Notes under the pieces: model-generated | The model's database searches: none | What the model was told of the DNA's origin: nothing | Seen by the model: only the letters and a program-made list of their open reading frames with translations | Assembly (NCBI GenBank): GCA_037445065.1 | Contig: JBBILD010000021.1 | Location: 1-59,492 of the forward strand | From: Myxococcales bacterium | Lineage (GTDB): Bacteria; Desulfobacterota; Binatia; HRBIN30 | Direction: 5' to 3' | Length of the DNA: 59,492 nt | Shown: positions 3,859-59,428 of the stretch, piece by piece | How the letters are laid out: each line of letters starts with the position of its first letter | Numbering within the stretch: the stretch's first letter is position 1 | Translations under genes and position numbers: made by a program

Positions 3859-3904
3859 TGGCGTCATGGAGGGCCTTTTGGTGGTGAGGAAAGGAGACGA
3901 AGTG

Positions 3905-9885: not shown

Positions 9886-9891
9886 GCCTCC

Positions 9892-12540: not shown

Positions 12541-13334
12541 GGTCCCTCGGGGGTGGAGCTCGGCTCTGCGGCGAGCAATTCAGCAAGCTTGGTACCCGGG
12601 TCTGGGCTGCGCATGAGACTTTCCCCGACCAAGAAGACGTGGATTCCAGCCCGCTCCAAGCGCGCAATATCGGCTGCGCTCTCGATACCGCTTTCCGCAA
12701 CCGCCCGTACGCCGCTCGGCAGGTTTGCCGCCAAGCGCTCGCTCACCGCGAGCGAGGTCACGAACGTATCTAGATTGCGGTTGTTGATGCCGATCAAGCG
12801 GGCGCCGCTCTCTACGGCGCGGGCTAACTCTGCCTCATCGTGAACTTCGACCAGCGCCGCCATCCCCAAACTCTCTGCAAGTTCCCGCAGTCCGTGCAGA
12901 GCAGCATCGTCCAGCATCCGAACAATCAGCAGTACGGCATCGGCACCGTAGGCGCGTGCTTCGTGGATCTGGTAGTCGTCGAACAAGAAGTCCTTGCGCA
13001 GCAAGGGTACGTGCACCGCGCTACGGATGGAGCGCAAGTGCTCGAGGTCACCCTGAAAAAAGCGCCCTTCCGTGAGCACAGACAAGGCTGCGGCACCGTG
13101 CCGTACATAGCTGGCAGCAATCCACACGGGATCGAAGTCCGTGCGAATCACTCCCTTCGATGGAGACGCGCGCTTGATCTCGGCAATGATCGCGCGCGGG
13201 CGGTTCAGAGCCGCCAGGAAATCGCGCCGCGATTCATTGTATAGAGGCCGCGCTTGCAGCTCGCACAAGGGGTGTTGCCGCTTGCGTTCTTGCAGCTCCT
13301 CGCGCTTGTGTTCGACAATGCGCTGCAGGATCAT
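12534..13334 (-). CDS. trpC: Indole-3-glycerol phosphate synthase
   Basis: IAEIKRASPSKG, LLRKDF, GINNRNL, AESGI, LVGESLM. Start ATG 13334 overlaps the trpD stop (ATGA). Confidence 0.97.
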   Translation of the reverse strand: MILQRIVEHKREELQERKRQHPLCELQARPLYNESRRDFLAALNRPRAIIAEIKRASPSKGVIRTDFDPVWIAASYVRHGAAALSVLTEGRFFQGDLEHLRSIRSAVHVPLLRKDFLFDDYQIHEARAYGADAVLLIVRMLDDAALHGLRELAESLGMAALVEVHDEAELARAVESGARLIGINNRNLDTFVTSLAVSERLAANLPSGVRAVAESGIESAADIARLERAGIHVFLVGESLMRSPDPGTKLAELLAAEPSSTPEGPW

Positions 13335-14344
13335 GCACGACTCCACTCGGCCACTTGCTCGAGTTTCTCCCATGCCCGGCCCGAGGCGAGCACGGCGCGC
13401 GCCAGGTGGATTCCCTCGGCCAGCGATGCCACTCGGTCCGCCGCGTACAGCGCAGCTCCGGCGTTCAGAACCGTAAAGTCCGCGCACGCTCCTGGTTCCC
13501 CGCGCAGCACACTCTTCATCTGGGTCGCCGCCTGTTCGAGACCGCCGCAGACAACCGCGGCCAACGGTTGCCTGGAGATCCCGAAGTCCTCGGGCTGGAC
13601 TTCGTATTCGACAAGCTCCCCACCACGCCACTCGGCGACGCGGGTCGCGTCGGAGAGAGAAATTTCGTCCAGACCGTCCCGGCTATGCACGACCAACACG
13701 TGCTGCGCCCCCAAACGTGCGAGCACTTCCGCCACCGGCCGCAACCAAGTGGGAGCGAACACCCCCACCAACTGGTGCTCCGCTCCAGCTGGGTTGGAAA
13801 GCGGTCCGATGAGGTTGAAGATCGTGCGCACGCCAATCTCGCGTCGCACCGGTGCGACGTGGCGCATCGCCGGGTGGAAACGCGGAGCGAACAAGAAACC
13901 AAAGCCCAGCACCTCGATGCAATCGCGCACGCGTTCCGGAGGCAAATCAACACACATCCCGAGGGCCTCCAACACATCCGCGCTTCCCACCGAACCCGAG
14001 GCGGATCGGTTGCCATGCTTCGCCACCCGTACCCCCGCGGCAGCGGCAACTAGGGCGGCAGCCGTGGAAACATTGAATGTGCAGCGGCGGTCTCCCCCCG
14101 TGCCGCACGTGTCCAACAGGGGCCCAGCGACCCGCACCGTGCAGGCATGCGCTCGGACCGCCCGCACCGCACCCGCCAACTCCTCCGCCGTCTCTCCCTT
14201 CATACGCCAGGCAACGAGCGCGGCGGCGATTTGCGCCGGCGTCAAGCCACCCTTGATCATTGCGGAGAGAAGCTGCTCGGCCCCCTCTTCGCCCAGCGAG
14301 TGGCCCTCGACCAGTTCGGAGATCACCTGGGGGGCCCGGATCAT
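13331..14344 (-). CDS. trpD: Anthranilate phosphoribosyltransferase
   Basis: [39 protein letters not shown]. Confidence 0.98.
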
Positions 14345-14925
14345 CGCAGTACGCTTTCCTCCGAAAGCGCGAGGAAGTTACGCAAGAGGTCCTTGCCCAC
14401 ATCGGTGAGGATGGACTCGGGGTGAAATTGCACGCCCTCCACCATGAGGTGCCGATGGCGCAACCCCATGATCTCTCCCTCCTCGGTCCAGGCGCTCACT
14501 TCCAAACACTCGGGCAGCGTGTCGCGGTCCACCAACAACGAGTGGTAGCGCGTGGCACGAAACGGCTGCGGCAAGTCACGGTAGAGCGTACGGCCATCGT
14601 GGAAGATGGGCGAGGTCTTGCCGTGCATGAGCCGCGCGGCGCGCACCACCTTACCGCCGAAGGCAACGGCCAAGCTTTGGTGGCCGAGACACACTCCCAG
14701 AATCGGAATCTGACCGGCAAATCGGCGGATCACCTCTACCGAGATACCCGCTTCTGCCGGTGTGCAAGGCCCGGGCGAGATGACGATTTGTGCTGGGTGC
14801 AAGGCTGCGATCTCGTCCACCGTCATGGCATCGTTGCGCACCACCTGCACTTCTGCGCCCAGCTCGCCAAAGTACTGCACGAGGTTGTAGGTGAAGGAGT
14901 CGTAGTTATCGATCATCAACAACAT
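14341..14925 (-). CDS. trpG: Anthranilate synthase component II (glutamine amidotransferase)
   Basis: [33 protein letters not shown]. Confidence 0.96.
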
Positions 14926-14937
14926 GAGATGAAAAAC

Positions 14938-16422
14938 TTAATGGCCAGCTAGACCTGCCGCCAGCCGAACGGCGTGCAGGGCAGCGCGGGCCTTGTTGAT
15001 GCATTCGCCGTGCTCACGCTCTGGGATCGAATCCGCCACCACTCCTGCCCCCGCCTGCACGAAGTAGCGGCCGTCCTTCACCACGATGGTACGGATCGCG
15101 ATGCACGTGTCCATGTCGCCAGAAAAGGCAAAGTAGCCGACCGCCCCGCCATACACACCGCGGCGAGAGGGTTCGAGTTCGTCAATGATTTCCATGGCGC
15201 GAATTTTGGGGGCACCCGTGAGAGTCCCGGCTGGGAAGGTCGCTTGGAAGGCGTCGAACGCATCCAAATCGCGGCGCAGGAGCCCCCGGACGTTGGAAAC
15301 CAGATGCATAACGTGGGAGTATCGTTCGACCACCATGCACTCGGTCACTCGAACCGAACCGATCTCCGCGACCCGACCCACATCATTGCGGCCGAGGTCA
15401 ACGAGCATGATATGCTCGGCAACCTCCTTGGCGTCTTGCCGCAGCTCGTTCTCCAAGGTGAGGTCGGACGCCTCGTCCGTGCCGCGCGGGCGCGTGCCGG
15501 CGATCGGCCGCACGGTAATTTCGCGCCCTTCCAAGTGGCACATGACCTCAGGAGAGGAGCCAGCCAACGTCACCTCGCCAGCGCGCAAGAAAAACATGTA
15601 CGGAGCTGGGTTCACTTTGCGCAAGCAGCGGTACACGTGAAACGGCTCCGTGCGCAGGTCACCGTCGAAGCGCTGGGCAAGCACGACCTGAATGATGTCG
15701 CCGGCGGCAATATACTCCTTGGCTCTACGTACCATTGCCTCGTACTGATCTTGGGTGAGGTTGGCGTGCGGCAACTCGAAGTGAGTCGCCGACTGCAGCT
15801 CGCTCGGTGCCCGCACCGTACGCCGCAGCCGTTCGACCATCCCTTCGAGGCGCGCCAGAGCTTGGTCATAAGCAGCGCGCAAGCTCTTACCGTCGCCAAC
15901 ACGAGCGTGAGTCACAGCGGTCACCGTATGGCGGGCATTATCGAAAACCAGAAAGGAGTCCATCAGCATCAGGTAGAGGTCGGGAACCTGCAAATCGTCG
16001 GCGGGGCCACCCGGAAGCCGCTCGAAGCGGCGTACCAAATCGTAGGCTAAGTAGCCCACCCAACCACCGTTGAAGCGAGGTAAAAACGGCACCGCCGGGA
16101 CTTGGTACTGTAACAAAATCCGGCGCGCCTCATGCAGGGGGTTCTGGCTTTCAACAACGGTGGGCTCGCCGCTACGTGTGCGAACCTCCGCTCGCTTCCC
16201 TTTGGCGGTGAGCACCATCGCGGGCTCCACGCCGAGAAAACTAAAGCGCCCCCAGCGCTCGGGCCCCTCCACGCTTTCGAACAAGAACGCATCCTGCCCC
16301 GTGTCCAATTTCAGAAACGCCGAGACTGGCGTCTCGAGATCGGCCAAAATCTCGCGCGCAACTGGGATGGTATTTCCCTGTTCTGCAAGTGCACAAAAGG
16401 TCGCAAAATCGGGCTGGATCAT
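14938..16422 (-). CDS. trpE: Anthranilate synthase component I
   Basis: LFESVEG, NPAPYM, SSPE, PIAGTRPRG, EHIMLVDLGRND, AGTLTGAPK. Confidence 0.97.
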   Translation of the reverse strand: MIQPDFATFCALAEQGNTIPVAREILADLETPVSAFLKLDTGQDAFLFESVEGPERWGRFSFLGVEPAMVLTAKGKRAEVRTRSGEPTVVESQNPLHEARRILLQYQVPAVPFLPRFNGGWVGYLAYDLVRRFERLPGGPADDLQVPDLYLMLMDSFLVFDNARHTVTAVTHARVGDGKSLRAAYDQALARLEGMVERLRRTVRAPSELQSATHFELPHANLTQDQYEAMVRRAKEYIAAGDIIQVVLAQRFDGDLRTEPFHVYRCLRKVNPAPYMFFLRAGEVTLAGSSPEVMCHLEGREITVRPIAGTRPRGTDEASDLTLENELRQDAKEVAEHIMLVDLGRNDVGRVAEIGSVRVTECMVVERYSHVMHLVSNVRGLLRRDLDAFDAFQATFPAGTLTGAPKIRAMEIIDELEPSRRGVYGGAVGYFAFSGDMDTCIAIRTIVVKDGRYFVQAGAGVVADSIPEREHGECINKARAALHAVRLAAGLAGH

Positions 16423-16434
16423 CAGAGGTTTCCT

Positions 16435-17142
16435 TCACTGAGCGGTCACGAAAGCGCCGCTCATTCCGCCTTCGCTGCGCAGCCGGCGTTGCAACTCTTC
16501 CGCCTTCGCACGGTCGCGGGGGGAAAAACGGCCGACCCGAACCCGATACCACGTGACTCCTTCACGAGTCGGCGCTTGCACCATGTACGCGTCATAGCCC
16601 CGGCTTCGCAGTCTCTGCACCAGAGCCCGTGCTTCGGCCGCGTCGGTGGTTGCAGTGACCTGCACGGTCCAACCGGCGTCGGCCCACTCCTCCGTTTGCG
16701 GCCGTGCCGGCACGCGTACGGTTGGCGTAAAGCGCGGGCGGCTGGTGGCCGTAGGACGCAGCGGTGGGCGCGTCTCCTCCGGCGCTCGGGCGGTTGGCCA
16801 TCCTTGCGGGGACGGAGCCGGGCTCGGCGCGACCGGCAACCGCGGCTCGGCGACGGTTGGAGGTGCGGTGGGCGCCTGAACGATCAGCCGCTCCTCGGCT
16901 TTTTGTTTCAAGCGCTGGTAGAAGGCCACGTCCGCAGCTTCCAGCTGCCCTTCCTCTGGCGTCGGCGTCACGACGGCCAGCGGCACCCGCACCACCGGTT
17001 CTTCTTCTAGAAGCCGGCGTTCCGTAAGATCCCGGCCCACCCACAAGCCGAGGAGAAAAATGACCACCGAGGCGAGACAAAAGCCGAGCAGGAGGATGAA
17101 CACTTGCCCGTACGTCAGGCCTCTCTGGTCCCTACCGCTCAT
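16435..17142 (-). CDS. SPOR-domain membrane protein (FtsN/DedD-like)
   Basis: N-terminal TM, Pro-rich linker, C-terminal WTVQV...WYRVRVG SPOR motif; follows argS. Confidence 0.88.
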   Translation of the reverse strand: MSGRDQRGLTYGQVFILLLGFCLASVVIFLLGLWVGRDLTERRLLEEEPVVRVPLAVVTPTPEEGQLEAADVAFYQRLKQKAEERLIVQAPTAPPTVAEPRLPVAPSPAPSPQGWPTARAPEETRPPLRPTATSRPRFTPTVRVPARPQTEEWADAGWTVQVTATTDAAEARALVQRLRSRGYDAYMVQAPTREGVTWYRVRVGRFSPRDRAKAEELQRRLRSEGGMSGAFVTAQ

Positions 17143-17148
17143 CCCTCG

Positions 17149-18798
17149 TTACATCTCCTCGGGAGCACTTACGCCGAGTAGCGTGAGTCCTTTACGAACC
17201 ACCTGGCCCGCCGCCCACGCCAAGTAAAGGCGGGCAAGACTCAGCGCGCGATCCTCGCTCAGGACACGATGCCGGTTGTAAAACCGGTGAAAATCCGCCG
17301 CCAAGTCAATGAGGTAAAATACCACTCGGTGCGGTTCGCATTGGCGTACGGCGTCCTCGACCACGTCCGGATAGGTTGCGAGTCGTTTGATCACCGCCAC
17401 CTCTTCCTCGGTGACCAAACGATGCAGCGCCGCGTCGCGAGCCGCAGGCACGACCACACCCGCAGCGCTCGCCTGCTTCATCAAGCTGCACACGCGCGCG
17501 TGGGCGTACTGGACGTAAAAAACCGGGTTTTCTGTGGACTGGCGCTTGGCCAACTCGAGGTCGAACTCCAAGTGGCTGTCAGCCTTGCGGGTGAGGAAGA
17601 AAAACCGCACCGCATCGGCCCCCACCTCGTCAATCAGCTCATCCAAAGTCACATACTCAGCCCGGCGCGTGGACATCTTCACTTGCTCCCCGCCCCGGGT
17701 CAGAGTGACGAACTGGTAAATGATGGCACGGACCCGGCCTACGTCGTACCCGAGTGCGCGCAGGGCGGCGCGCACGTCCTCATGCTCCGCAATGTGATCG
17801 GCACCCAAAACATCCACCATCAGATCGAAGCCGCGGGCAAACTTGTTGCGGTGGTACGCGATGTCGGGCAAACGGTAAGCTGGTTCGCCGGTGGACTTCA
17901 CCAGCACCCGATCCTTGTCGAGCCCAACCGCCTCGCCCTTGAGCCACACTGCGCCATCGCGCTCCTCGGCGAGCCCCTTGGCACGCAGATCCGCGAGAGT
18001 TCGCTCGAGCGAGCCGTCCCGGTACAGCGAGTCCTCGTTGAAATACGAATCAAAGCGAATGGCGAGGTGCTGTAACGTTCGTTCGATGTCCTGGAAAATC
18101 GCCCGCTCTGCTGCCTCTTTGAAGAGGCCGGTAGCGGGCTCTGCGCGCAGCGTGTCACCGTGCTCCTCGAGCAAGGCCCGCGCGATGTCGCGGATGTATT
18201 CGCCCTGATAACCTTCGTCTGGAAACTCCACGGACTCACCCAGAAGCTGCAGGTAGCGGGCTTTGACCGACTCGCCGAGCAGCTTCATCTGCCGGCCCGC
18301 GTTGTTGAAGTAGTACTCGCGCGTGACCCGCCAGCCGGCTGCACCGAGCAAGCGCGCGATCGCATCGCCAAGCACAGCATTGCGCCCGTGACCCACAGTG
18401 AGCGGGCCAGTGGGGTTGGCGCTCACAAATTCCACCAGTACGCTCTTGGTTCCCACCTGGTCGGGAGAACCAAAATCCGGCGACTCCACCTCTATCAAGC
18501 AATCGGCCCAAAATCGGTGGGTTAAATACAGATTGATGTACCCGGGTCCAGCCACCTCGATCTTGGCGAACATTCCATCCGGGTTCTCGATGAGCGGCAT
18601 GATCTGTTCCGCCAACTGGCGGGGTGCAACGCGCTCGCTGCGGGCCAACATGAGAGCAGCGGTGCAGGCAAGGTCACCCAGGGCAGGATCCTTCGGAGTC
18701 TCCAAAACCAGCGGATACGGGGGGGCGGTGCGCAGCAGCCCCTCGCGGTGTGCCTTCTCCAAGGCCCGGTACAAAATCGCTTCGACTTTCTTTTTCAT
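17149..18798 (-). CDS. argS: Arginyl-tRNA synthetase
   Basis: AGPGYIN, VEFVSANPTGPLTVGHGR, KMSTR, YVQYAHAR, C-terminal PEEM. Confidence 0.98.
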   Translation of the reverse strand: MKKKVEAILYRALEKAHREGLLRTAPPYPLVLETPKDPALGDLACTAALMLARSERVAPRQLAEQIMPLIENPDGMFAKIEVAGPGYINLYLTHRFWADCLIEVESPDFGSPDQVGTKSVLVEFVSANPTGPLTVGHGRNAVLGDAIARLLGAAGWRVTREYYFNNAGRQMKLLGESVKARYLQLLGESVEFPDEGYQGEYIRDIARALLEEHGDTLRAEPATGLFKEAAERAIFQDIERTLQHLAIRFDSYFNEDSLYRDGSLERTLADLRAKGLAEERDGAVWLKGEAVGLDKDRVLVKSTGEPAYRLPDIAYHRNKFARGFDLMVDVLGADHIAEHEDVRAALRALGYDVGRVRAIIYQFVTLTRGGEQVKMSTRRAEYVTLDELIDEVGADAVRFFFLTRKADSHLEFDLELAKRQSTENPVFYVQYAHARVCSLMKQASAAGVVVPAARDAALHRLVTEEEVAVIKRLATYPDVVEDAVRQCEPHRVVFYLIDLAADFHRFYNRHRVLSEDRALSLARLYLAWAAGQVVRKGLTLLGVSAPEEM

Positions 18799-21675: not shown

Positions 21676-22785
21676 CTACGCGCTTGATCCGTCGCCACAG
21701 CCCTGCAGGGCCAGGTTCACGACGAAAATGATCTCGTCAATCGTAACCTCGCCATCACCGTTGCGATCCATCGCAGCGCAATGCGCCAGGGGCTGCTCCC
21801 CGAGGGCGATATTCACTCCGCGGATCAGTTCGTCTATCGTCACTTCCCCATCGTCGTTACAGTCCCCCGCCTCACAGACCACAGGGGGAGAGGTCGGCGT
21901 CTCCGCAGGAGTCGGCTCCGGTGTCGGCGTCTCCTCACCTACCGTCCCCGTCGGGCTCGGCTCCGGTGTCGGCGTCTCCTCACCTACCGTCCCCGTCGGG
22001 CTCGGCTCCGGTGTCGGCGTCTCCTCACCTACCGTCCCCGTCGGAGTCGGCTCCGGTGTCGGCGTCTCCTCACCTACCGTCCCCGTCGGAGTTGGCTCCG
22101 GTGTCGGCGTCTCCTCGGCTGCCGTCCCCGTCGGGCTCGGCTCCGGTGTGGGTGTTGGCGTGGCAGTTGGGGAATCTGTGGGGCTCGCCAAGCTCACCGG
22201 CTCTCCTACGCATTCCCCCGCTCGGCACGCGTCATTTGTCGTGCACTCGTTGCCGTCATCGCAAGGCGTGCCGTCCGGAGCGTTCCCTGTGTACGTGCAC
22301 TCACCCGTTTCCGAATCGCAGCTCCCACCGCTTTTACACGGATCCTCGCACTGCACCGGGAAGGAGCCGCACTCACCGGTGAGGATGTTACAGTTGAATG
22401 TACAACTGTCCGACAGCTCACCACACTGCAGCTCTCCCAAACAGAAACCACCACGACACTGGTCGTTCGCAGTGCATGCCCCCAAAACGTCCTGACAAGC
22501 CGTCCCATCAGGGACCGCCTCACCTCGGCAAGTTCCGGCCACACACTGATCGTTGGCCGTGCACGGGTTCAAGTCGTCGCACGCGGTGCCGTCCGCCAGC
22601 GGTGTGCCCACGCAGTTGCCTTCCGCATCGCACGCGCCTACCTGGCAGGGGTTTCCGGTCGCACACGCGATCGCGCCGGAGTCCACCTGTGCCGGGAGAG
22701 CCGGCGCAACGGCTAAGACGAAAACCGCGGCCAATGCTTGCCACGCTTTCCCCAGCGTCCATTGCCACTCGTTGGCTGAGCGCAT
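21676..22785 (-). CDS. Secreted Cys-rich repeat protein with a Pro/Thr/Glu stalk and a C-terminal dockerin-like domain
   Basis: Signal peptide; CDDxNxCTxNDxCxxGxC repeats; TP repeats; GDCNDDGEVTIDEL...DRNGDGEVTIDEI. Start after AAGGAG. Confidence 0.85.
   Translation of the reverse strand: MRSANEWQWTLGKAWQALAAVFVLAVAPALPAQVDSGAIACATGNPCQVGACDAEGNCVGTPLADGTACDDLNPCTANDQCVAGTCRGEAVPDGTACQDVLGACTANDQCRGGFCLGELQCGELSDSCTFNCNILTGECGSFPVQCEDPCKSGGSCDSETGECTYTGNAPDGTPCDDGNECTTNDACRAGECVGEPVSLASPTDSPTATPTPTPEPSPTGTAAEETPTPEPTPTGTVGEETPTPEPTPTGTVGEETPTPEPSPTGTVGEETPTPEPSPTGTVGEETPTPEPTPAETPTSPPVVCEAGDCNDDGEVTIDELIRGVNIALGEQPLAHCAAMDRNGDGEVTIDEIIFVVNLALQGCGDGSSA
21916..22149. repeat. Coding tandem repeat, 5 x 45 bp (15 aa, EETPTPEP(S/T)PTGTVG)
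   Basis: Unit CTCCGGTGTCGGCGTCTCCTCACCTACCGTCCCCGTCGGGCTCGG at 21916, 21961, 22006, 22051 and 22096, with few substitutions. Confidence 0.95.
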
Positions 22786-23005
22786 CTCCTTCTCCCCCTT
22801 TCCTGGAGTCTCCTGCGATTTCGAAGGCCCACTTGCTACCGGAACCAACGAGCCGGCACAAGACAGTTTCTGCCATTCTAAAAATCCTTTTCGATTGACA
22901 CGCGCCGTGCCGCTGGCGTACAGAGCGCTGCGCTAGATCGGTGGGGCGCCCTCGAGGTCGAACAACCACAAGGGCCAAGACAACAAACAACAGAAGGAGG
23001 AATTC

Positions 23006-35512: not shown

Positions 35513-36171
35513 CCGGCAGTTGTGCCCAGCGCTGTTTGCGTTGGGCTGTGCGGCGCTAACCACCAACTCGAGGCGAGGGTCCTTCCCAGTGCAGGCACGT
35601 TTTCACTTGCACTGGGGCACATTCGGAATTCTCGTCGAGTTGGTTACCGCGGAGGCCTCGAGCCCAATCCAACGCCCTCTCCGCGGCCTGGGCGCTCTAG
35701 GCAAGCTGCTGCCAACCTCTCAGGCGAAAGCGCTGACCCAACGGGCGTTCCGGAAGTGCTCAAGCAACCTGGGGCATCCCAGCACCAGTTACGGCACAGC
35801 CGCTCCTCGCTCAATGGGACCTCAGCAAGCTCGTACCCAAGTGAGTGGCTCTGGCCGGTTCTCCGCTGATTCTCGGATCGTAACCGCCTGCCTTGGCACT
35901 GGTCCGACCGAGCTGTCTCCGAGGCCGCTTTGGTACGGCTACCCGGCTGCAAGAAGCGGCGCATTTCTCAACTCCTCCCCCCCACCTGCCGCGTTGGATC
36001 AGCCACTCCCCTCCGGGAAGCACAGTTGCTCAACGCACTGACTGGTAGTCCTCCGCCCACGACGGGGGGCAGCCCCTATTGCAGAGGCTGGGTGAACTTC
36101 ACCACGAGGCGGGACTTGCAAAAAAGGGTTTCCCTGCCCCAATTTTAAATTCTGTGATGGCCCCGAACAGT

Positions 36172-36957
36172 ATGAAAATCCAGTGCAGGAGCGAAAACCA
36201 AGAAGCGTCCTATTCGAAGGGGAAGCAGTGCGTCTGGGTCCAGCGTTTTGTCCGACTGGCACAGCGAGTACCCGCAGCGTTTGTCCTGGGAACGCTTTGC
36301 GGCTGGTTTTGTGTGCCCCAGTCCACCGCTGCCGAGGGAGATCAGGCGCTAAGAGCGATCGTGCATGAAGCCCCCTCGTCGTCCTCGGTGCAAAAGGAGC
36401 CCCTTATTTGCCCGCCAGACCCTTCCCCTTGCGGGGGCGATTGCAATGGGGACAAGGAGGTCACGGTGGACGAGGTCGTGCGCGGGGTCGGAATTCTGCT
36501 CGGCTTGGCTGAGCTGGCAAGCTGCCCGGCGGCGGACCGGGATGGGAACGAGATCGTTACGGTGGACGAACTGGTGGAGTCCGTGAGCCACCTGCTTTAC
36601 GGCTGCAACCAGGCTCCGTTCCGGACCTTTCTCGTTCGCGCCTGCTCCTCGCTCGAGAATCCAGAAGGAGAAACGTTCACCGTTCGCTTCGTCGATCCCG
36701 AAATGATTTCACTGGCGGAGCGGATCGCGGCGGGCAAGGAGCCGCAACGGATTGTGACCGGGCGTTTGCGCTGTGGCGACGGCGGGTTCAACCGAGGTTG
36801 GAGCTGGCACCTAGACCCGAACAGCACGAGCCTGGTAGTGGCCTCGATCGAGCTGTGCGACGGGTGCCCGTCGTTCGTAGAAGCCGAACTCGACTACTGG
36901 TTACGGCTCGGGCGCTACTGCCCCTGGAGCACGGAGATTCTGCGGCCTTTGGACTAG
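36172..36957 (+). CDS. Secreted dockerin-like domain plus BP74/CAM-BP15-like domain protein (start uncertain)
   Basis: CGGDCNGDKEVTVDEV...CPAADRDGNEIVTVDEL...GC, then WSWHLDP...IELCDG.PSFVE...YCPWS. Confidence 0.7.
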   Translation: MKIQCRSENQEASYSKGKQCVWVQRFVRLAQRVPAAFVLGTLCGWFCVPQSTAAEGDQALRAIVHEAPSSSSVQKEPLICPPDPSPCGGDCNGDKEVTVDEVVRGVGILLGLAELASCPAADRDGNEIVTVDELVESVSHLLYGCNQAPFRTFLVRACSSLENPEGETFTVRFVDPEMISLAERIAAGKEPQRIVTGRLRCGDGGFNRGWSWHLDPNSTSLVVASIELCDGCPSFVEAELDYWLRLGRYCPWSTEILRPLD

Positions 36958-51315: not shown

Positions 51316-52458
51316 TCACAAACCAGACGGCTGCGCAGCGGGCAGCAAAATGATGTCTGCTTGGGTGCGAATCCCCCGTTGGTGAACATTCGACGCGTTC
51401 GAAAAGGCCGCCTGACCTGCCGTGTGGAACTCCTCGGTAATCGCCAACAGCCCCGTGCCCCGCACCGGATCGTTGGTCTGAACTCCACGCACGATGGTCT
51501 GGCCGGTTAAGGTTCCCTGCACCGCCACGTTGAAGATCGAGAACGCATCGTCTCCGGTTCCGGGCCGCGTATCGATATCAGAGAGCGCGATTTCCTGGAA
51601 GCAGGTCACGCTACGGCTCGTCGAGAAACGCTGCTCGAACTCATTGAACACCAGGTACTGCGCCACCACGCTCCGCGGGGCCTGGAAGTTGAAGTCCTGC
51701 GAGCACGGCACAAGGGTGAGATCCGTTCGAATGGTCGGGCTTCCAACGACCCGCGGGCCCGCGCCGTCGAAGAAGTGATTCAGCAACAACAAGTTCGGGC
51801 AGCCATTGTACTCTGCACCTAGGACCAGCGTATTGTCGCGGTTGTTCGCGCCTTCGATGGCCTGGATGCCGATGGCGTTATAGCCGCGCACATCCACACC
51901 TTCCTGGATGGTGGCTTCACCCTTGAGCCAGTTTTGATCCACCGGCAACTCGTCGTCCCCAACTTGCACGCATTTGAGTTCCCCCACCATTGGATCGTCC
52001 GGGGAAGGCGGAATGCTGCCCGAGTTAAACTCACCCTTGGGCCCAGGCTGATTCGCAAGGGGCAGATCCGGCAACCCGTCCCGAACCGAAAACACGATGG
52101 GCTGCTTCGAGGTCAGGCGGAACGCAAAGTCCGTCTCTTGCCATCCGGGAACGCAAAAGCCCGGCTGCGAGCAGGTGTTGGGGCCATTCGGATTACACAC
52201 CTCGAACGGAGCACTCGAACAGCGACCGTTCGCGTTTACGTAAAAGCAGCGAACGTTGACTGGCTGATTTTCAACGTTCGAAATCTGAATCAGGGTATCC
52301 ACTCCGTTGCTGGAATCCACCACGACTTTCGGGAACACCAGAATTGCCGCCGGATTCGTGGAAGACACGTCGGCCCGCAACGCGCCAACCCCGAACCCCA
52401 AACCGGCCAGCAGCCCCAACGCTCCAGTCCCTTTCCGCATCCAGTTGACCGTACGCAT
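51316..52458 (-). CDS. Secreted protein of unknown function, paralog family member B'
   Basis: AAGGAG RBS, signal peptide (LRA/DV), family motifs and a 4-Cys insert; DTRPG.GDDAFSIFNV is shared with member B. Confidence 0.85.
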   Translation of the reverse strand: MRTVNWMRKGTGALGLLAGLGFGVGALRADVSSTNPAAILVFPKVVVDSSNGVDTLIQISNVENQPVNVRCFYVNANGRCSSAPFEVCNPNGPNTCSQPGFCVPGWQETDFAFRLTSKQPIVFSVRDGLPDLPLANQPGPKGEFNSGSIPPSPDDPMVGELKCVQVGDDELPVDQNWLKGEATIQEGVDVRGYNAIGIQAIEGANNRDNTLVLGAEYNGCPNLLLLNHFFDGAGPRVVGSPTIRTDLTLVPCSQDFNFQAPRSVVAQYLVFNEFEQRFSTSRSVTCFQEIALSDIDTRPGTGDDAFSIFNVAVQGTLTGQTIVRGVQTNDPVRGTGLLAITEEFHTAGQAAFSNASNVHQRGIRTQADIILLPAAQPSGL

Positions 52459-52518
52459 CGTTCTTCTCCTTTCCCTCACCTCGCTCGGCGCTCCTCTACC
52501 GCTTCCCAGGCCACCGCT

Positions 52519-53598
52519 TTACTCGCGCGGGGCTAACAAGATCGTGTCCGGCCCGTTTGGCGGGATGAAGCTTCCCGTGGTATGGAGACTGTGCATGACC
52601 GTCCCTTGACTTCCGCCAGTCGAAACGAACCGCCGAGCCACACCAATCACGCCGCCAGAGTCACCATTCGGCTGTACAACCGGAGTGATCTCGGTCATCG
52701 CTACGGTCGTGCCAAGCACCGTATCAGAGAAAACAGAGTTGTTGAGCCCACCAAAGTCCAGCGTATTCAGGAACTGCGACAGATAGCAAGTCACCGTGGT
52801 GCTCGCCGAGAAGCGCTCCTCGAATTCGTTCCAAACCAAGAACTGCACAGTTACCGACTTTGGCTGCTGATTCTCCAAGTCCTGGGCGCAAGGGACCAAC
52901 GTCAATTCCGTCAACGCCCTGCCCCCGCCATGCTCGGCGTCCTCAGCAAAGTGATTGAGCCAGAGCTTTTCAGGGCAAGCGGCGTAGACTTCGCCGTCCA
53001 ACACCAGCGGATTCGAGGGCTGCGCGTCCGGGTTGGCCTCGATGCCAATGGCGTTGTAACGCGAGGTATCTCCAGACGAGGCTACCAGCACCGCCGAGCC
53101 CCGCAGGTGGTTTCCAGCCACCGGCTCACCCGATGCCGTAACCTCAACGCACTTAAGTTCGCCCTCGAAGTCCGGCTTCGGAGGAATGTGGCCGGGATCG
53201 AAACCGGATCCGTCGTTGCCGATCCCATCCGTGAGGTCCACCTGCCGCCCATTGGCCACCGACCAGTGCGTCGGCTGCTGTCGGGTGAGCCATATGTCAA
53301 AATCCGTCTCTTGCCACAAAGCCTGGCATGTTGCGCTCGGGCGCGAACAGCGCTGACCCGTCACAACATCGAACAGCCGCGCATCAATGTAATTGCAGTG
53401 CGCCTGAATCAGCGAGTTGCTCGTGTTGACAATTTGGATGATCGTATCCTCGGACGCAGAAGCGACCACCTTTGGAAAGACGAGGACCGAAGCCGCCTTC
53501 TCCGACGTCACGTCAGCCCGCGCTGCCGACGTCAAGACCCCCAGGACGACGGCGATCCCAAGTCCCGAGAGGAATCCATCCCACTTCACCATTCGCAT
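52519..53598 (-). CDS. Secreted protein of unknown function, paralog family member A'
   Basis: AAGGAGGAGG RBS, signal peptide (ARA/DV), family motifs; G.DPG.IPP and QDLEN are shared with member A. Confidence 0.85.
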   Translation of the reverse strand: MRMVKWDGFLSGLGIAVVLGVLTSAARADVTSEKAASVLVFPKVVASASEDTIIQIVNTSNSLIQAHCNYIDARLFDVVTGQRCSRPSATCQALWQETDFDIWLTRQQPTHWSVANGRQVDLTDGIGNDGSGFDPGHIPPKPDFEGELKCVEVTASGEPVAGNHLRGSAVLVASSGDTSRYNAIGIEANPDAQPSNPLVLDGEVYAACPEKLWLNHFAEDAEHGGGRALTELTLVPCAQDLENQQPKSVTVQFLVWNEFEERFSASTTVTCYLSQFLNTLDFGGLNNSVFSDTVLGTTVAMTEITPVVQPNGDSGGVIGVARRFVSTGGSQGTVMHSLHTTGSFIPPNGPDTILLAPRE

Positions 53599-53891: not shown

Positions 53892-55250
53892 TCAGGCACG
53901 AACGATCTTTTCCCGACCCGCACGCACTTCCTTGGTCGCGTTACGCGTGTCGATGACGAGCCTGCTCTTGGCAACGATGAACTCATAATCGAATACGGAG
54001 TGATCCGTCGCGATCACCACCGCATCCGCTCGCTCCAACTCATCACGTGTCAGCGGCACAGAGGACATGTTAAAATCATATTTCCGCGATCGCTTCAAGA
54101 CCGGAACGTACGGATCGTGGTAACTGACCCGCGCACCTTTTTGCAAAAGAAGTTCGATGAGTCGCAAGGCCGGCGATTCGCGCGTGTCATCCAGATCCTT
54201 TTTATATGCGACCCCCAAAACCAGCACCCGTGCGCCTTTGATACTTTTTTGCTGTTCGTTGAGTGCATCCGCGAGCTTTCCAATCACGTACGCCGGCATG
54301 CTGTGATTGATCTCGCCGGCTAACTCGATGAAGCGGGTGGTCAGCTCGTACTGGCGCGCCTTCCAGGTAAGGTAAAAAGGATCGATCGGGATACAGTGCC
54401 CCCCCAGTCCAGGCCCGGGGTAAAACGGGGTGAAGCCAAACGGCTTGGTGGCAGCCGCGTCAATCACTTCCCACACATCGATCCCCATCCGGTCGAACAG
54501 GACCTTCAGTTCGTTGACCAGCGCGATGTTCACACACCGGTAGATGTTTTCCAGCAGCTTTGCCGCCTCCGCGACACGCGCAGAACTCACCGGGACTACC
54601 TTTTCCAACACCGATGCGTACAGGGCCACGGCCACTTCTCCGCAGGCCGGCGTGACTCCGCCCACTAGTTTGGGGATGTTACGCGTCCGAAACGTTGGGT
54701 TGTTTGGGTCTTCCCGCTCAGGAGAAAACGCCAAGTAAAAGTCCACGCCGACCCGTAGCCCCGATGCCTCCAGGATCTCCCGTACCACTTCATCGGTGGT
54801 CCCTGGGTAGGTGGTACTCTCCAGCACCACGAGTTGGCCTGGATGCAGGTTCTGGGCAATCGTGTGGGCGGTGCCTTCCACGTACGAAAGGTCCGGATCT
54901 CGGTTTGCACTGAGCGGTGTGGGGACACAAATCAGCGCGGCGTCGCAAAGCTGCAGTTGCGAAAAATCTGCGGTCGGTAAAAAGCGCCCGTCGCCCCGCG
55001 ACACGCTCTCCCGAGCCAGGATTTGCTTCAATCGTTCAGACGGGATATGGCGGATGTAGCTGCGCCCCGCCTTCAACTCTTCCACCTTGCCTCGGTCCAC
55101 ATCGAAGCCGATGACCGAGACTCCGCCCTCGGCAAAGGTCGCTGCTAGCGGCAAACCGACGTAGCCGAGACCGATGATCCCCACGATCCCCTGCCGCGAA
55201 CGGAAGCGGTCAATGACTTCGTCGAATGAAGGACGTTCTGGCACTGGCAC
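53892..55250 (-). CDS. Nucleotide-sugar 6-dehydrogenase (WbpA/WecC-like, likely UDP-GlcNAc)
   Basis: GLGYVGLP, ICVPTP, ESTTYPGTT, FSPER.DP, KLLEN, GGHCIPIDP, D.RESP. Confidence 0.93.
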   Translation of the reverse strand: MPVPERPSFDEVIDRFRSRQGIVGIIGLGYVGLPLAATFAEGGVSVIGFDVDRGKVEELKAGRSYIRHIPSERLKQILARESVSRGDGRFLPTADFSQLQLCDAALICVPTPLSANRDPDLSYVEGTAHTIAQNLHPGQLVVLESTTYPGTTDEVVREILEASGLRVGVDFYLAFSPEREDPNNPTFRTRNIPKLVGGVTPACGEVAVALYASVLEKVVPVSSARVAEAAKLLENIYRCVNIALVNELKVLFDRMGIDVWEVIDAAATKPFGFTPFYPGPGLGGHCIPIDPFYLTWKARQYELTTRFIELAGEINHSMPAYVIGKLADALNEQQKSIKGARVLVLGVAYKKDLDDTRESPALRLIELLLQKGARVSYHDPYVPVLKRSRKYDFNMSSVPLTRDELERADAVVIATDHSVFDYEFIVAKSRLVIDTRNATKEVRAGREKIVRA

Positions 55251-55268: not shown

Positions 55269-56831
55269 CTAACCCCTCTCGATCCGGTTGCGCTTTCTCC
55301 ACCATAACAACGCCGCGGGCAGCAACAACCAAGCAGACGACCAGCCCCGGCGATGCGCTCCCGCGATGTTGCAATCGCAGCCATCACCTTCTGCCGACAC
55401 CGCCGTCGCGGTTGCGGTGGGGGTGCGAACCGGCGTGCGGGTCACCGTGGGGCCGGTTACCGTCCCTGTCACGGTGGGCGACGCCGGAATGGGCGTTGCC
55501 GTGGGTGTGCGTGTCGCGCTCGGTGAGACCACACCCGTGCTTGTGTGCGTGGGTGTGAGCGTGACTGTCGCCGCAGGCGTCGTGGGGCTTGGCGTCGGGG
55601 TGGGTTCGACGCATACAAGGCCTTCCCGGCCCGTGGCCGACGGAATCCGTTGGCCTTGCGCGTCGCTCGCGATCACGTTGGTCACCGCCAGGGTGGTCTC
55701 CTCCGCGTTCACCGTCACATTACACCGGTACAGCTCTGAACCGTCGGGGATCGGGTTCGTGTTTTCAAACGAAATCACCACGGCGCGCACCGCCCGGCAC
55801 TCGTTCTCAGGGCAGTGCGCAGGAAGGAAAGCGAACGCCGAACCTTCCTTGCCAAGGGCTGGGTTCACTGTACAATCCGGCCGCCCATTGTTCAGCCGGT
55901 TCACTCGAACTCCCGTACCGAATTCCAAGTCGTTCTGAGTGGCCACCACCTCGCTGCCTCCCGCCACCAAGCGGACAACGACCGTCCCTTGCCCTTGAGT
56001 GGCAAGCACCAGGTCCTCGGCAAACACCGCCGGGCCGCTCGGCGCCGGACGCGGCGACGGGCAAGGTGTGCGTCCGACGGGAGGCGTGGTCGGCCCAGGA
56101 GATACTGGAGTCGTCGGTACTTCGGTTGGCGTATCGGTGTGAGTCGGGGTGGGCGTCGGTGTCGAGGTTGGAGGAGTGCCGGTATTCGTAGGCGTGAAAG
56201 TCGGGCCCGGGGTGCCGGGGACGATCCTGCCTGGGTGCAACATGATCTCCCCAGGCAACGCTCGGGCGGGGATCGAGTTATCCGCCACCTGCAACCGCTC
56301 TGCAGTGATGCTCAACGGCCCTTCCTCGGCATCCGCGCGGATCGCAAACACGCAGCGCAAAATGTCTCCGTCCGTTATCGTCGGTAGTGGCAGCTGCGTT
56401 CCCACGACCGCGAAGCGAAGCCGGTATGCATTGGGGCCCACGTTCTGGAAGTCGGGCGGAATCACTTCGAGGAGGTGCTCTGACAGGCGCGGGTCGAGCG
56501 CACACTCGCCAGGCGCAAAGCGGCACGGGTCCCCATCCGCGCACTGCTCAGAAAGGGTGCAGCCCTGGCCATTCGTGCAACGTCCCCCGAGGTTCCACTG
56601 CCGGGTGTCGAACAGGAGATCGAAGTTGATTGTCGCTACGGCACCGTCCTGCGCGTCGCGCGTCATGCGCACATCCAACACGACTTGCCCGCCAGGAGCC
56701 GAGTCGGTCGTCGTCACGTGAAGTACAACAGCCGCCTTGGCACTCGCGGCAGAAAGCATCATCCCCAGGGCCGCCAAGAGGCTCACCCCCGGCCCTCGCC
56801 TACGCCCCCGTTTTGTTCGCTCCAGCACCAT
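55269..56831 (-). CDS. Surface scaffold protein: two cohesin-like domains, Pro/Thr linkers and a MYXO-CTERM-like anchor
   Basis: Signal peptide (AKA/AV); two beta-sandwich modules (V.V...VAT..DL.F...DG.L.RC.F...V.D); C-terminal GDGCDC...WLLLPAALLWWRKR. Start after GGAGG. Confidence 0.7.
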   Translation of the reverse strand: MVLERTKRGRRRGPGVSLLAALGMMLSAASAKAAVVLHVTTTDSAPGGQVVLDVRMTRDAQDGAVATINFDLLFDTRQWNLGGRCTNGQGCTLSEQCADGDPCRFAPGECALDPRLSEHLLEVIPPDFQNVGPNAYRLRFAVVGTQLPLPTITDGDILRCVFAIRADAEEGPLSITAERLQVADNSIPARALPGEIMLHPGRIVPGTPGPTFTPTNTGTPPTSTPTPTPTHTDTPTEVPTTPVSPGPTTPPVGRTPCPSPRPAPSGPAVFAEDLVLATQGQGTVVVRLVAGGSEVVATQNDLEFGTGVRVNRLNNGRPDCTVNPALGKEGSAFAFLPAHCPENECRAVRAVVISFENTNPIPDGSELYRCNVTVNAEETTLAVTNVIASDAQGQRIPSATGREGLVCVEPTPTPSPTTPAATVTLTPTHTSTGVVSPSATRTPTATPIPASPTVTGTVTGPTVTRTPVRTPTATATAVSAEGDGCDCNIAGAHRRGWSSAWLLLPAALLWWRKRNRIERG

Positions 56832-56881
56832 GCCCCTTTCCTCCTGCCTCATGGCCATCTCGATACCAATCCACACGCTCT

Positions 56882-59428
56882 TCACGGGCAACCCCTCGCC
56901 AGTCGCAAGACGGCTCGGGTGAGGTCACCTACGGTCACCTCGCCATCACCGTTCGAGTCTGCAGCGGGGCATTCCGCCAGGCCAGTGCGTCCCGCCATGA
57001 TTTGCACCACGGTTGTGATTTCCGTGCCCACCACTTGCCCATTTCCATCGCAATCGCCCGGGCAACTTGCCGACGGAGTCGGCTGAGGCTCGGGACTCGG
57101 AGCCTCGAGAGGTACCACCGCGCCGATGGCACGAGCCTGGAAGGTGGTTGCGCGCGCGTCGCCTACGTTCAAGCGATCGGCAGAGAAGCTCGCGTTCCCA
57201 CTATTGCCGCCAACTCGCTGGAATGCGCAACGGAACACCCCACCGTCGGCAAACGACTGGATTGGGTAGGCCAAATCGCCAGCAAACAAGCGCAAGCGCT
57301 TGAGTCCTTCCGGGGCGGGCGGGCTCGACGGCTGGGTCGCCAGCAGCACGTGCGAGGACCGCAGACGCTCCTCGAGCTTGCAGGCACGGCTAGCATCTCC
57401 AATGTCGAGCAGGGTTGCGTCGTACAGCAAATCGAGTTGCACGGTAGCGAGATCCCCGCCACCACCAGAAGCACCGACCGTCACCACCACGCTCTCCGCT
57501 CCCTGCGACTCGGCGTGGATGTTGAGGGTTACCTCCTCTGGCCGGTCGTGCGCAAAAATCAAGGGCCGCCCTTCTTGCACGCACCCCCGCGCCAAGTTCA
57601 GCACAATCTGGGTGATCTCGTTCCCCATTACGTTCCCGTCGCCGTCAATGTCGGCAGCTTGGCAAGCACTGAGCGGCAGTAGCCCACCCAGCACGAACAC
57701 CGCGTTACTGACCTCGCTGCCGAACACGAACCCGTCGAGGTTGCAGTCTCCACCACATTCGCAAAGGCCATCCACGCACGCTTCTCGGTCGAAGCACTGT
57801 AAGCGGTCCACATTCGGGTCCGCGTCGTCACACGGCCGCTTCTTCTTGCAAGTACCGCCGCGGCAATGCTCATCCGGTGCACAGTCCTGATCGCCGGCAC
57901 ACGGCCGGAACGTCGGCGTCGGTGTCGCCGTCCGGGTCGGAGTACGCGTCAGCGTCGGCGGAGGAGTACGGGTCAAGGTGGGCGAGGGACTCGGGGTGAG
58001 ACAGAACCCCCGCACGCATACCTGGCCCGCTGGGCACACACCGTCTGGACATGCTCCCGGACCGAAGAACGGATTCGTCCCGGCATAGACCTGCCCGGCG
58101 AATGCGCCGCCCGCGCCCAAATTCGTCGCAAAAGAGACAAACGCGACCTTCTCCCCGTCCGCGGAAATCGCGAACGGCACGTCGGGCACGCCGTTATTTC
58201 CCAGCTCGCCGCGCTCGTTCACATCTACGGCGACGGTGACGCCAATCGCCATGTCGCGCACGAATACATTCGAGGCGTTGTTAGCGTCGTTAAAAATCAG
58301 ATTTGTCGCCGCCGATCCGAAGACCACGAACCGACCGTCTTGGCTGATCGCGGGGGGAAACGAAAAATCGTTTGCATCACGGTTCGCAAAGCTCACGCTC
58401 ACCCGCTGGATCTTCCGCTCTTGGCGGTCGAAGCGGAATACGTCCACCACACCGTTGCGGTCGTCCGACACCAGGTTGGTGGCGATGGACTTGAACGCTA
58501 CGAAGCGCCCGTCCCCACTGATTGCAGGCAGGATGCTGTCCCCGTTCCCCTGCTGCCCGGCATCAGACACGCTCACCCGCTCAATCGTTCCCGTGCGCCG
58601 GTCACAAACGAAGATATCCAGCGCTCCATTCGTGTCCCCAGGCACCAAGTTGGTCGCGGCCGAGGAAAAAGCCACCAACATCCCATCGTCACTGATCGAA
58701 GCATGGGAACTCGCCCCATTGCCTTGCACGCCGCACAAGCGCTCGGTGATCCCCGTGGCTCGATCGTGAACAAAAATATCCGATCGCCCATTGGTGTCGC
58801 CTGTAACGAGGTTGGTCGCCTCGGACTGAAAGACCACAAACCGGCCATCGGCGCTGATGTCGGGGAAAAAACTGTTCCCGTTGGCCTGTGTACCGTCGGA
58901 GGCCACGCTCACCCGCTCGGTTACCCCGCTCGCGCGCACCCGCACGAACACATCGGACCGAGCGTTGGTGTCGCCGGGAACCAAATTCGACGCGCGCGAG
59001 TCAAACGCCACCACAGAGCCGTCGCCACTCAGAGAAACGTTACCGCCAGCCGACTGGCTCGGACCGTTCGCCTGAGCCCCTGAGGAACTCACACTGACTC
59101 GCTCGATAGTCCCCGCGTCCAGGTCACGCACAAAGACGTCGCGCGCCTGGTTGGTGTCGCCAGGAACGAGGTTACTGGCGTCCGAGTAAAACCCCACGAT
59201 CTTACCGCTCTGGTCGGAGCCAACGCCGTTCGACAGGCCATTCCCGGGACGCCCAGCCACGGTGGTACTGACGACTTGCACCGATCCGGCAGGCTGTGCA
59301 CGGACTTCCAACGGCACCATCGCCGCACCAAGCCCAATGGCCACGAGCCATAAGGCCTGGCACATCAAGGAAGCCCCCAACACGCCCGGCTTGTCCCGAT
59401 GAACAGAAGCCCCGCTGCGGACCCTCAT
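56882..59428 (-). CDS. Secreted multidomain protein: PD40/TolB-like beta-propeller, Cys-rich region, dockerin-like, cohesin-like, dockerin-like
   Basis: Repeats IS.DGRFV.F.S.ATNLV..DTN...D.FV.D; two CxGDCxxxGxV...C.AAD.xGDG.V...GC modules flank a cohesin-like unit. Start after AAGGAGG. Confidence 0.8.
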   Translation of the reverse strand: MRVRSGASVHRDKPGVLGASLMCQALWLVAIGLGAAMVPLEVRAQPAGSVQVVSTTVAGRPGNGLSNGVGSDQSGKIVGFYSDASNLVPGDTNQARDVFVRDLDAGTIERVSVSSSGAQANGPSQSAGGNVSLSGDGSVVAFDSRASNLVPGDTNARSDVFVRVRASGVTERVSVASDGTQANGNSFFPDISADGRFVVFQSEATNLVTGDTNGRSDIFVHDRATGITERLCGVQGNGASSHASISDDGMLVAFSSAATNLVPGDTNGALDIFVCDRRTGTIERVSVSDAGQQGNGDSILPAISGDGRFVAFKSIATNLVSDDRNGVVDVFRFDRQERKIQRVSVSFANRDANDFSFPPAISQDGRFVVFGSAATNLIFNDANNASNVFVRDMAIGVTVAVDVNERGELGNNGVPDVPFAISADGEKVAFVSFATNLGAGGAFAGQVYAGTNPFFGPGACPDGVCPAGQVCVRGFCLTPSPSPTLTRTPPPTLTRTPTRTATPTPTFRPCAGDQDCAPDEHCRGGTCKKKRPCDDADPNVDRLQCFDREACVDGLCECGGDCNLDGFVFGSEVSNAVFVLGGLLPLSACQAADIDGDGNVMGNEITQIVLNLARGCVQEGRPLIFAHDRPEEVTLNIHAESQGAESVVVTVGASGGGGDLATVQLDLLYDATLLDIGDASRACKLEERLRSSHVLLATQPSSPPAPEGLKRLRLFAGDLAYPIQSFADGGVFRCAFQRVGGNSGNASFSADRLNVGDARATTFQARAIGAVVPLEAPSPEPQPTPSASCPGDCDGNGQVVGTEITTVVQIMAGRTGLAECPAADSNGDGEVTVGDLTRAVLRLARGCP

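Follow-up and report, generated by a model that had tools for sequence, protein, structure and literature searches.

Putative anchor and adaptor genes at the locus

The DNA analysed here (the window; 59,492 nucleotides) is the complete contig C21 of a Binatia genome (G000; 3.79 Mb, 97.7% complete); loci elsewhere in the genome are given by contig and position. Near the end of the window, two adjoining genes on the minus strand encode a putative anchor protein (A) and a putative adaptor protein (B) built from cohesin-like and dockerin-like modules, and two further dockerin-like cargo proteins are encoded at 21.7 and 36.4 kb. The features are as follows.

56882..59428, minus strand: adaptor B (~848 amino acids [aa]); signal peptide, beta-propeller, Cys-rich and Pro/Thr region, dockerin-cohesin-dockerin
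58076..59284, minus strand: TolB/PD40-like beta-propeller of B (PD40, 30 bits; TIGR02800, E 8e-6)
57572..57757, minus strand: dockerin 1 of B, B-type, with F-G-S-E and M-G-N-E at loop positions 9-12
57104..57541, minus strand: cohesin-like domain of B, predicted type b, linked to domain 1 of A by phmmer (E ~1e-3) and by alignments
56885..57064, minus strand: C-terminal dockerin 2 of B, B-type, with V-G-T-E and T-V-G-D
55269..56831, minus strand: anchor A (~520 aa); signal peptide, two cohesins, Pro/Thr linkers, MYXO-CTERM-type tail
56217..56732, minus strand: cohesin 1 (domain 1) of A, predicted type b, with a four-Cys loop insertion (Pfam Cohesin, E 0.0017)
56064..56216, minus strand: Pro/Thr linker 1 of A (69% Pro plus Thr)
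55602..56039, minus strand: cohesin 2 (domain 2) of A, type a, of the tandem-repeat scaffold family (model confidence, pLDDT, 97)
55398..55601, minus strand: Pro/Thr linker 2 of A (56% Pro plus Thr)
55290..55388, minus strand: MYXO-CTERM-type sorting tail of A; two Cys, transmembrane (TM) helix and basic cluster (GDGCDC-TM-RKR)
21676..22848, minus strand: cargo protein with Cys-rich repeats and a Pro/Thr/Glu linker; C-terminal common-type dockerin at 21691-21876
36079..36957, plus strand: cargo protein with a BP74_N domain (36655-36945, 98 bits); common-type dockerin at 36430-36618

The start of adaptor B is the ATG behind AAGGAGGA. The open reading frame (ORF) of A spans 55269-56891, with a likely start at the ATG at 56831 and an alternative GTG at 56885 that overlaps the upstream stop. 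An earlier reading of this DNA from its letters alone (the sequence-only reading) had described a cohesin/dockerin-like scaffold here. The domain order that it gave for A, two beta-sandwiches with Pro/Thr linkers and a GC.C-TM-basic end, was found as claimed, as were the propeller-borne dockerin-cohesin-dockerin of the adjoining adaptor and the two extra cargo proteins. The parts that it put together are therefore real, yet they make up a small share of a genome-wide system. Its diderm host was likewise recovered, because LptD is encoded in the window and two Omp85 (BamA) genes above the cut-off are present in the genome. The dockerin-cohesin-dockerin order of B recurs in families f1 and f4. 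Propellers resembling that of B, at C4:18097 and C12:58726, carry a terminal MYXO-CTERM-like tail, not dockerins.

Folds and sequence classes of the modules

Domain 2 of A was folded with 63 homologs (pLDDT 97). Among the Foldseek matches listed, all were cohesins, and the best was the Archaeoglobus cohesin 2XDH (E 3.4e-8). VIA, run on Foldseek's own candidates, gave a Z of 16.7 and an rmsd (root-mean-square deviation) of 2.1 A over 131 residues against 6KGC, and all 50 matches listed were again cohesins. The model is a nine-stranded jelly-roll beta-sandwich that superimposes on solved cohesins, and the sequence profile of the domain matched the ruminococcal cohesin 5N5P at E 2.5e-5. The cohesin call of the sequence-only reading, made by pattern recognition, was thus confirmed for the fold of domain 2. 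That reading had named a fold like that of carbohydrate-binding modules (CBM) or immunoglobulins (Ig) as the way in which it could fail; no CBM or Ig row was present among the Foldseek and VIA matches listed, and an IgE profile match at E 0.008 was partial and unsupported by the fold. Domain 1 of A and the domain of B appear to represent a second cohesin type (type b), a call that rests on profile homology; the type-b profile combined with four cohesins of C11 gave E 2.5e-5.

Type-a cohesins keep two Cys almost without exception, and their two loop Cys are lost together (p 6e-60, a value inflated by related sequences). In solved complexes, the 8-3-6-5 sheet is the dockerin-binding face, according to the part of PMC5429695 that was available. 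In type a, strands 3 and 6 are conserved at the positions inferred to face outward, with a mean entropy of ~2.2 bits versus 3.2 bits on the opposite sheet, outward and inward residues having been assigned from alternation and not from coordinates. This strand 3/6 patch differs between types a and b.

A comparison of folds was needed for the dockerin-like module because EF-hand proteins score best by sequence profile. The 21.7-kb module, modelled with 82 homologs, gave a loop-helix-loop-helix structure (pLDDT 94) in which a 12-residue Ca loop and its helix are duplicated, no E-helix precedes, and helices 1 and 3 are antiparallel. In Foldseek, dockerins were found down to rank 22 among the matches listed (TM score 0.62-0.71), whereas EF-hand proteins reached a TM score of at most 0.39 with an rmsd of 9.5-13 A. 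In VIA, ranks 1-26 were dockerins (best Z 7.7, rmsd 2.5 A over 57 residues), and the best EF-hand protein had a Z of 3.4. A calmodulin-like EF-hand pair was rejected on this fold comparison despite its sequence-profile matches. Judged from its model, the common module is a dockerin and not an EF-hand pair.

The spacing of the two loops was 32 in 153 of 165 distinct dockerins. The flanking Cys residues pointed out earlier were borne out, all four being kept in 155 of the 165. Co-loss links the first Cys to the last (p 1e-9) and the loop-1 Cys to the pre-loop-2 Cys (p 4e-4), both values depending on motif indexing and being inflated by related sequences. Two disulfides per module are therefore predicted, and the disulfide stabilisation proposed in the sequence-only reading gains support from these patterns. 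A minority class, poorer in Cys and carrying Asp at loop position 12, was found at C8:37826, C8:173089, C12:109761, C14:75084 and C18:1585, of which three pass Pfam Dockerin_1. Dockerins with a longer Cys linker are located at C4:28478, C46:79 and C11:23012.

The modules fall into two sequence classes. Common dockerins have T-[IV]-D-E at loop positions 9-12, whereas those of B have x-G-[NST]-E, and a profile of the latter matched only the two dockerins of B in the genome at E 1e-15 or better. The first class comprises the two dockerins of B with the cohesins of A domain 1 and B, and the common class comprises A domain 2 with the 21.7- and 36.4-kb dockerins. By sequence, the three cohesins and four dockerins that had been proposed for all-against-all pairing cannot be exchanged for one another. 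At 15 of 19 loci outside profile building, the type-b cohesin was flanked by B-type dockerins, and 13 of these 15 had a second type-b gene next door. The simplest reading would pair type b with the dockerins of B and type a with the common ones, and B could then bind both A and further B. Many orthologs of A consist of a type-b cohesin and the tail alone; the type-b domain is thus the conserved core of A, and domain 2 is therefore an add-on.

Census, anchors and cargo

Iterated self-built hidden Markov models (HMMs) were run on the 37,760 ORFs of the genome. Dockerins gave 64 matches spread over 62 ORFs. Cohesins gave 17 matches in 12 ORFs, to which Pfam added two ORFs (14 in all). The 37,760 reversed ORFs gave no dockerin or cohesin match at E<0.01, which puts the census far above chance. 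The 62 dockerin ORFs include a few fragments and one uncertain case (19.6 bits). By a crude rule, 49 of the 62 have a signal peptide. Library HMMs see the modules of the window below cut-off, and Pfam alone would miss most: PF00404 Dockerin_1 gave 16.6 bits on dockerin 2 of B (cut-off 22.9) and was passed by three of 54 other dockerin proteins, and PF00963 Cohesin gave 19 bits on A (cut-off 24.1). Elsewhere in the genome, homologous cohesins at C11:104185 (89.5 bits) and C15:64855 (25.5 bits) exceeded the latter cut-off.

A tandem-repeat cohesin scaffold is broken in the assembly, one piece closing C11 and the other opening C22; the pieces carry identical 477-base repeats and a 127-base overlap. 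The scaffold ends in a MYXO-CTERM tail (21-24 bits) and is located behind two dockerin genes in many relatives. The other cohesin proteins include a three-cohesin lipoprotein (C11:104185) and a one-cohesin lipoprotein (C3:15624). The scaffoldin arrangement of cell-anchored multi-cohesin proteins with an adaptor was found for A, the C11/C22 scaffold and the three-cohesin lipoprotein. At C11:103704-106497 a one-cohesin protein whose N-terminus bears a hydrophobic anchor comes after the three-cohesin lipoprotein, and the cohesins there are of a further type. Another repeated-cohesin gene is cut at the end of C40 and the start of C41, the pieces sharing the repeat with no direct end overlap. The cohesin count may be too low because two dockerin proteins (C11:144691-145707 and C4:27772-29650) have another domain that is cohesin-like by eye and was missed by the profiles. 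A weak cohesin-like domain at C15:153-1301 is followed by a Pro/Thr linker and a different tail (IP-rich motif, TM helix, Arg) resembling IPTL-CTERM; two more IP-rich tails occur at C29:3 and C38:2.

Domain profiles were used for the distribution, and a 41/41 result with full-length A was set aside because the Pro/Thr linkers inflate matches. Type-a cohesins were found in 26 of 26 genomes of the order versus 4 of 175 others in the class, and dockerins in 26 of 26 (8 to at least 31 each) versus 6 of 175. The family comprises 2,446 representatives at 50% clustering, with up to seven cohesins per ORF in relatives and eight in one representative. The repeat-cohesin profile gave matches of 77-86% identity in Candidatus Binatia bacterium and Bacterium HR30, and the host probably belongs to the HRBin30 order. 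When named genomes were scanned with a single protein no relative emerged; a tighter alignment did reveal one.

We consider it probable (about 0.68) that A and B form one pair within a cohesin-dockerin system that spans the genome and fastens secreted proteins lacking their own lipid to the cell surface. It is quite unlikely that the chief product is instead a cross-linked coat or cell-cell matrix, in which B and proteins with several cohesins and a dockerin polymerise and cargo display is secondary. B does carry two dockerins and one cohesin of the same class, 39 of the best 150 multi-cohesin representatives have their own dockerin, and cohesin/dockerin adhesins have been discussed for anaerobic methanotrophic archaea (ANME) and their partners in the available parts of PMC10553843 and PMC5244752. 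Most dockerin ORFs, however, have a single dockerin and no cohesin (only 3 of 62 carry one), and single-dockerin enzymes and cytochromes suit display more than cross-linking.

A has the Cys signature, the TM helix and the basic C-terminal cluster of MYXO-CTERM proteins together with an N-terminal signal peptide. Its tail scored 15.0 bits for TIGR03901 by hmmscan and 20.6 bits in the genome search (cut-off 20), and three orthologs of A scored 20.5-25.1 bits, which bears out the tail noticed earlier. A search for its sortase, which the sequence-only reading had recommended, yielded one conserved candidate Mrt_core gene in each of 52 genomes of the order, 29 of them above the cut-off, and none in 14 controls; in this genome the candidate myxosortase (NF040914; G000:C15:24609-24911) scored 94-97 bits (cut-off 100). 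About 9-10 proteins of the genome carry a MYXO-CTERM tail, and GspD (TIGR02517), the T2SS (type II secretion system) secretin, scored 577 bits versus a cut-off of 351. Cleavage of the tail by MrtX in Myxococcus depends on the Cys, and lipidation and T2SS delivery form a working model, as far as the accessible text of PMC11980579 goes. Sorting of the Myxococcus type may, by analogy, apply to A.

Four comparisons suggest that the dockerin acts as an anchor, and the strongest of them is the swap of anchors in MtrC/OmcA. By crude rules, none of the 62 dockerin ORFs had a lipobox or a MYXO-like tail, versus 19 of 81 other ORFs with Pro/Thr linkers, a comparison set that includes spurious ORFs (p 8e-6). 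The best 150 multi-cohesin representatives comprised 54 with a tail, 39 with a dockerin, none with both and 57 with neither, an exclusion that arises in part because both elements are C-terminal. Of the 52 genomes of the order, 34 have MtrC/OmcA above the cut-off. In 10 of the 30 MtrC/OmcA decaheme loci listed, the leader runs straight into a dockerin, which the other 20 lack; a lipobox was found by rule in 19 of these 20 and was visible by eye in the remaining one. The only lipobox match among the 10 dockerin-bearing proteins falls inside the dockerin, and none has both anchors. On a quick tree of MtrC there were four changes between lipobox and dockerin, of which at least two are forced by strong branches, and the swap thus appears to have arisen at least twice. 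MbnH was above the cut-off in 33 of 52 genomes, and 21 of the 30 MbnH loci listed have a C-terminal dockerin, with no lipobox by eye in the 20 with a readable N-terminus. The case of MbnH is weaker than that of MtrC.

In this genome, the MtrC homolog (G000:C7:151986-154454; TIGR03507, 379 bits versus a cut-off of 209; 10 CxxCH motifs) has a signal-peptidase-I-type leader and an N-terminal dockerin. It lies in a multiheme cluster (C7:145762-154454) with a 676-aa ORF without a Pfam match and 7-, 4-, 18- and NapC/NirT-like 6-heme ORFs. The 676-aa ORF could be a porin, and the cluster looks like a porin-cytochrome conduit. Adjoining it is a 2,318-aa secreted-looking ORF (C7:156934-163887), the start of which resembles YD/Rhs-repeat proteins.

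Pfam was scanned on 58 of the 62 dockerin ORFs, four fragments being left out. The cargo identified on dockerin ORFs included trypsin-like, M10 and M28 peptidases, MbnH, MbnP, a P460 fusion, the OmcA/MtrC decaheme, FG-GAP/UnbV, NHL, BNR and PD40 propellers, DUF3604 and Ig-like repeats; 36 of 54 dockerin proteins had no identified cargo domain. None of the 58 scanned proteins matched a glycoside hydrolase (GH) family. GH9 had no match in the genome, two GH5 proteins were present, neither with a dockerin, and GH48 had no match in a search without a positive control. A cellulolytic reading was rejected on the absence of GH from the dockerin proteins and of GH9 from the genome and on the dockerin-free GH5 proteins, in line with the non-cellulolytic system proposed earlier. 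The system likely holds dozens of unrelated secreted proteins (proteases, adhesin-like propellers and an electron-exporting cytochrome) at the surface, on membrane-anchored cohesins instead of by a lipid.

This cargo also bears on where the scaffolds reside. MbnH, MbnP and cytochrome P460 are usually periplasmic in other bacteria. Were the modules to bind while the scaffold remained at the inner membrane, such cargo would be arranged in the periplasm; the borderline tail and sortase scores in this genome, and the cohesin ORF at C11:103704 with just an N-terminal hydrophobic anchor, would fit. We regard this as unlikely. In the accessible text of PMC11980579, MYXO-CTERM proteins of Myxococcus reach the surface via the T2SS, and GspD is present here; MtrC/OmcA are described in abstracts as cell-surface proteins, and the dockerin replaces the MtrC lipobox. 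The long Pro/Thr linkers and large Ig and NHL proteins also suit an exposed location.

The predicted display system and its relatives

In the proposed mechanism of surface tethering, scaffolds and cargo would be exported by Sec and gain their disulfides in the periplasm. The single myxosortase-like CPBP protease would cut A and the tandem scaffold at the tail Cys, and the T2SS would carry them out, a step proposed because of the analogy with Myxococcus TraA; other cohesins would be lipoproteins. Ca-loaded dockerins may then bind the 8-3-6-5 face of the cohesins with at least two codes. About 50 common dockerins (on proteases, FG-GAP/NHL/BNR propellers, MbnH/MbnP, the P460 fusion and the MtrC decaheme) would bind type-a cohesins. 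The dockerins of B would bind type b, that is, A domain 1 and possibly the cohesin of another B, and B would thereby extend outward from A.

Several points weigh against this reading. The functional support is all comparative and comes from related genomes. The tail of A (15-20.6 versus 20 bits) and the sortase (94-97 versus 100) are at or just under their cut-offs, and MbnH, MbnP and P460 are usually periplasmic. Among the nine dockerin-free MbnH, a lipobox was clear in three, possible in two and absent in four. For the 62-residue dockerin, every Foldseek E was >0.04 and the VIA Z was at most 7.7; its sequence profile ranks EF-hand proteins above dockerins, the best dockerin among 60 matches listed having E 0.036, and Glu occupies loop position 12 in 206 of 226 cases. 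As for the cohesins, the identity of A domain 2 to known members is 7-22%, the type-b profile alone puts 6KGC first but at just E 0.051, and the outward positions of strand 8 are variable.

Some of these points would also fit the view that both families have spread as stable disulfide-clamped extracellular modules whose mutual binding was lost, the dockerin serving as a binder of other polymers or a secretion tag and the sandwich as a carbohydrate binder. The low identity to known cohesins and the EF-hand-like position 12 accord with it, and the function of non-cellulosomal modules is described as unknown in the available part of PMC5244752. We consider this the least probable of the alternatives and very unlikely, in that the structural neighbours of the sandwich listed were cohesins throughout, the two modules co-occur by lineage, operon and subtype, and tandem identical cohesins are borne on a sorting tail.

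Taking the surface-tethering reading further, we propose tentatively, at slightly less than even odds, that in one Binatia order the disulfide-clamped cohesin-dockerin pair is a general third surface anchor, interchangeable with the lipobox and the MYXO-CTERM tail, with at least two codes, a self-extending B adaptor and the terminal decaheme of an electron-export conduit on a protein scaffold.

The same two folds are found in clostridial and ruminococcal cellulosomes (type I pairs 6KGC, 1OHZ and 2VN5; adaptor and anchoring scaffoldins of Acetivibrio cellulolyticus and Ruminococcus flavefaciens), which also share many single-dockerin cargoes, few anchored multi-cohesin scaffolds, Pro/Thr linkers, adaptors with several cohesins and a dockerin, and more than one sequence class. 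Unlike cellulosomes, the present system belongs to a diderm host, has no GH among the 58 dockerin proteins and no GH9, is anchored by MYXO-CTERM tails or as lipoproteins instead of by S-layer homology (SLH) domains or sortase, and has two disulfides predicted in each module, a Glu at loop position 12 and multiheme cytochrome cargo. Of the non-cellulosomal cohesins of Archaeoglobus fulgidus (2XDH) and Clostridium perfringens (2JH2 and 2VO8), 2XDH is the best Foldseek match to A domain 2.

Non-cellulolytic assemblies have already been proposed, in the parts of the sources available, for Planctomycetes, Cloacimonadota, Limihaloglobus and ANME with their partners. The 'planctosome' of Nemodlikiaceae (PMC6461901) and the complex of Ca. 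Stygibacter (Cloacimonadota; PMC8542988) were put forward as such systems, and Limihaloglobus sulfuriphilus has a Coh-Doc-Coh protein and 13 dockerin fusions (PMC11557425). As far as these accounts could be consulted, they share with Binatia a genome-predicted anchor and adaptor, non-cellulase and peptidase cargo, Gram-negative-type cells and predicted binding; their modules are Pfam-detectable and their anchors differ, whereas the Binatia modules are Cys-clamped, mostly below Pfam cut-offs, number ~60 per genome across an order and replace the lipobox of orthologs. ANME genomes contain large cohesin/dockerin expansions, and a role in adhesion with multiheme cytochromes has been speculated on (PMC5244752 and PMC10553843); the accessible portions of the accounts of ANME and syntrophic sulfate-reducing bacteria describe no cytochrome-dockerin fusion or anchor swap, whereas here OmcA/MtrC bears the dockerin itself. 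The decaheme of C7, which heads its multiheme cluster, resembles the outer-membrane decahemes MtrC/OmcA of Shewanella in its TIGR03507 score and 10 CxxCH motifs, but has a dockerin where 20 of the 30 orthologs keep a lipobox.

The Cys signature, TM helix, Arg cluster, single-copy Mrt_core and T2SS secretin are shared with the MYXO-CTERM/myxosortase system (TIGR03901; MrtX, MrtC and MrtP), as far as the available text of PMC11980579 and 10.1101/2023.06.07.544157 shows. The latter places MYXO-CTERM in Myxococcota and Bradymonadales in its accessible part, and the string 'Binat' is absent from both texts as available. Unlike known MYXO-CTERM proteins, some tailed proteins here are cohesin scaffolds, through which many further proteins would be displayed indirectly. 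A literature search that covered subscription journals thinly turned up no work on Binatia dockerins or cohesins, and 'cohesin' is absent from the main text of PMC8262859. The system described here has real modules, an order-wide scale and an anchor swap that can be tested.

A paper on non-cellulosomal modules by Peer et al. in 2009 reportedly may list deltaproteobacterial examples. The role of cohesins and dockerins outside cellulosomes is called unknown or speculative in the literature consulted. Orthologs switch between a lipid anchor and a dockerin, and the tethering role is therefore directly testable with small domains that E. coli can express. If the reading is correct, it would mean a cellulosome-scale display system in a diderm, an extension of MYXO-CTERM sorting to Binatia, a new way of positioning a cytochrome for extracellular electron transfer, and a supply of cohesin-dockerin pairs, stabilised by disulfides and probably orthogonal, for engineering surface display.

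As for the rest of the window, a housekeeping run on the minus strand (8569-18798) comprises trpE/G/D/C/F/B/A, folC, a SPOR-domain protein and argS, read from translations, and lptD is located at 6357-8582. Five paralogs of 350-435 aa that look secreted lie at 2611-3858, 3839-5146 and 5238-6287 on the plus strand and at 51316-52479 and 52519-53598 on the minus strand. Their family has no Pfam match and counts 16 ORFs genome-wide, often in tandem and none with a dockerin; in the atlas it lies next to unnamed Binatota clusters, at a recognition value slightly under the reliable range. Directly downstream of A, a UDP-sugar dehydrogenase is encoded at 53892-55250 on the minus strand, for which a link to envelope polysaccharide or to glycosylation of the Pro/Thr linkers is possible.

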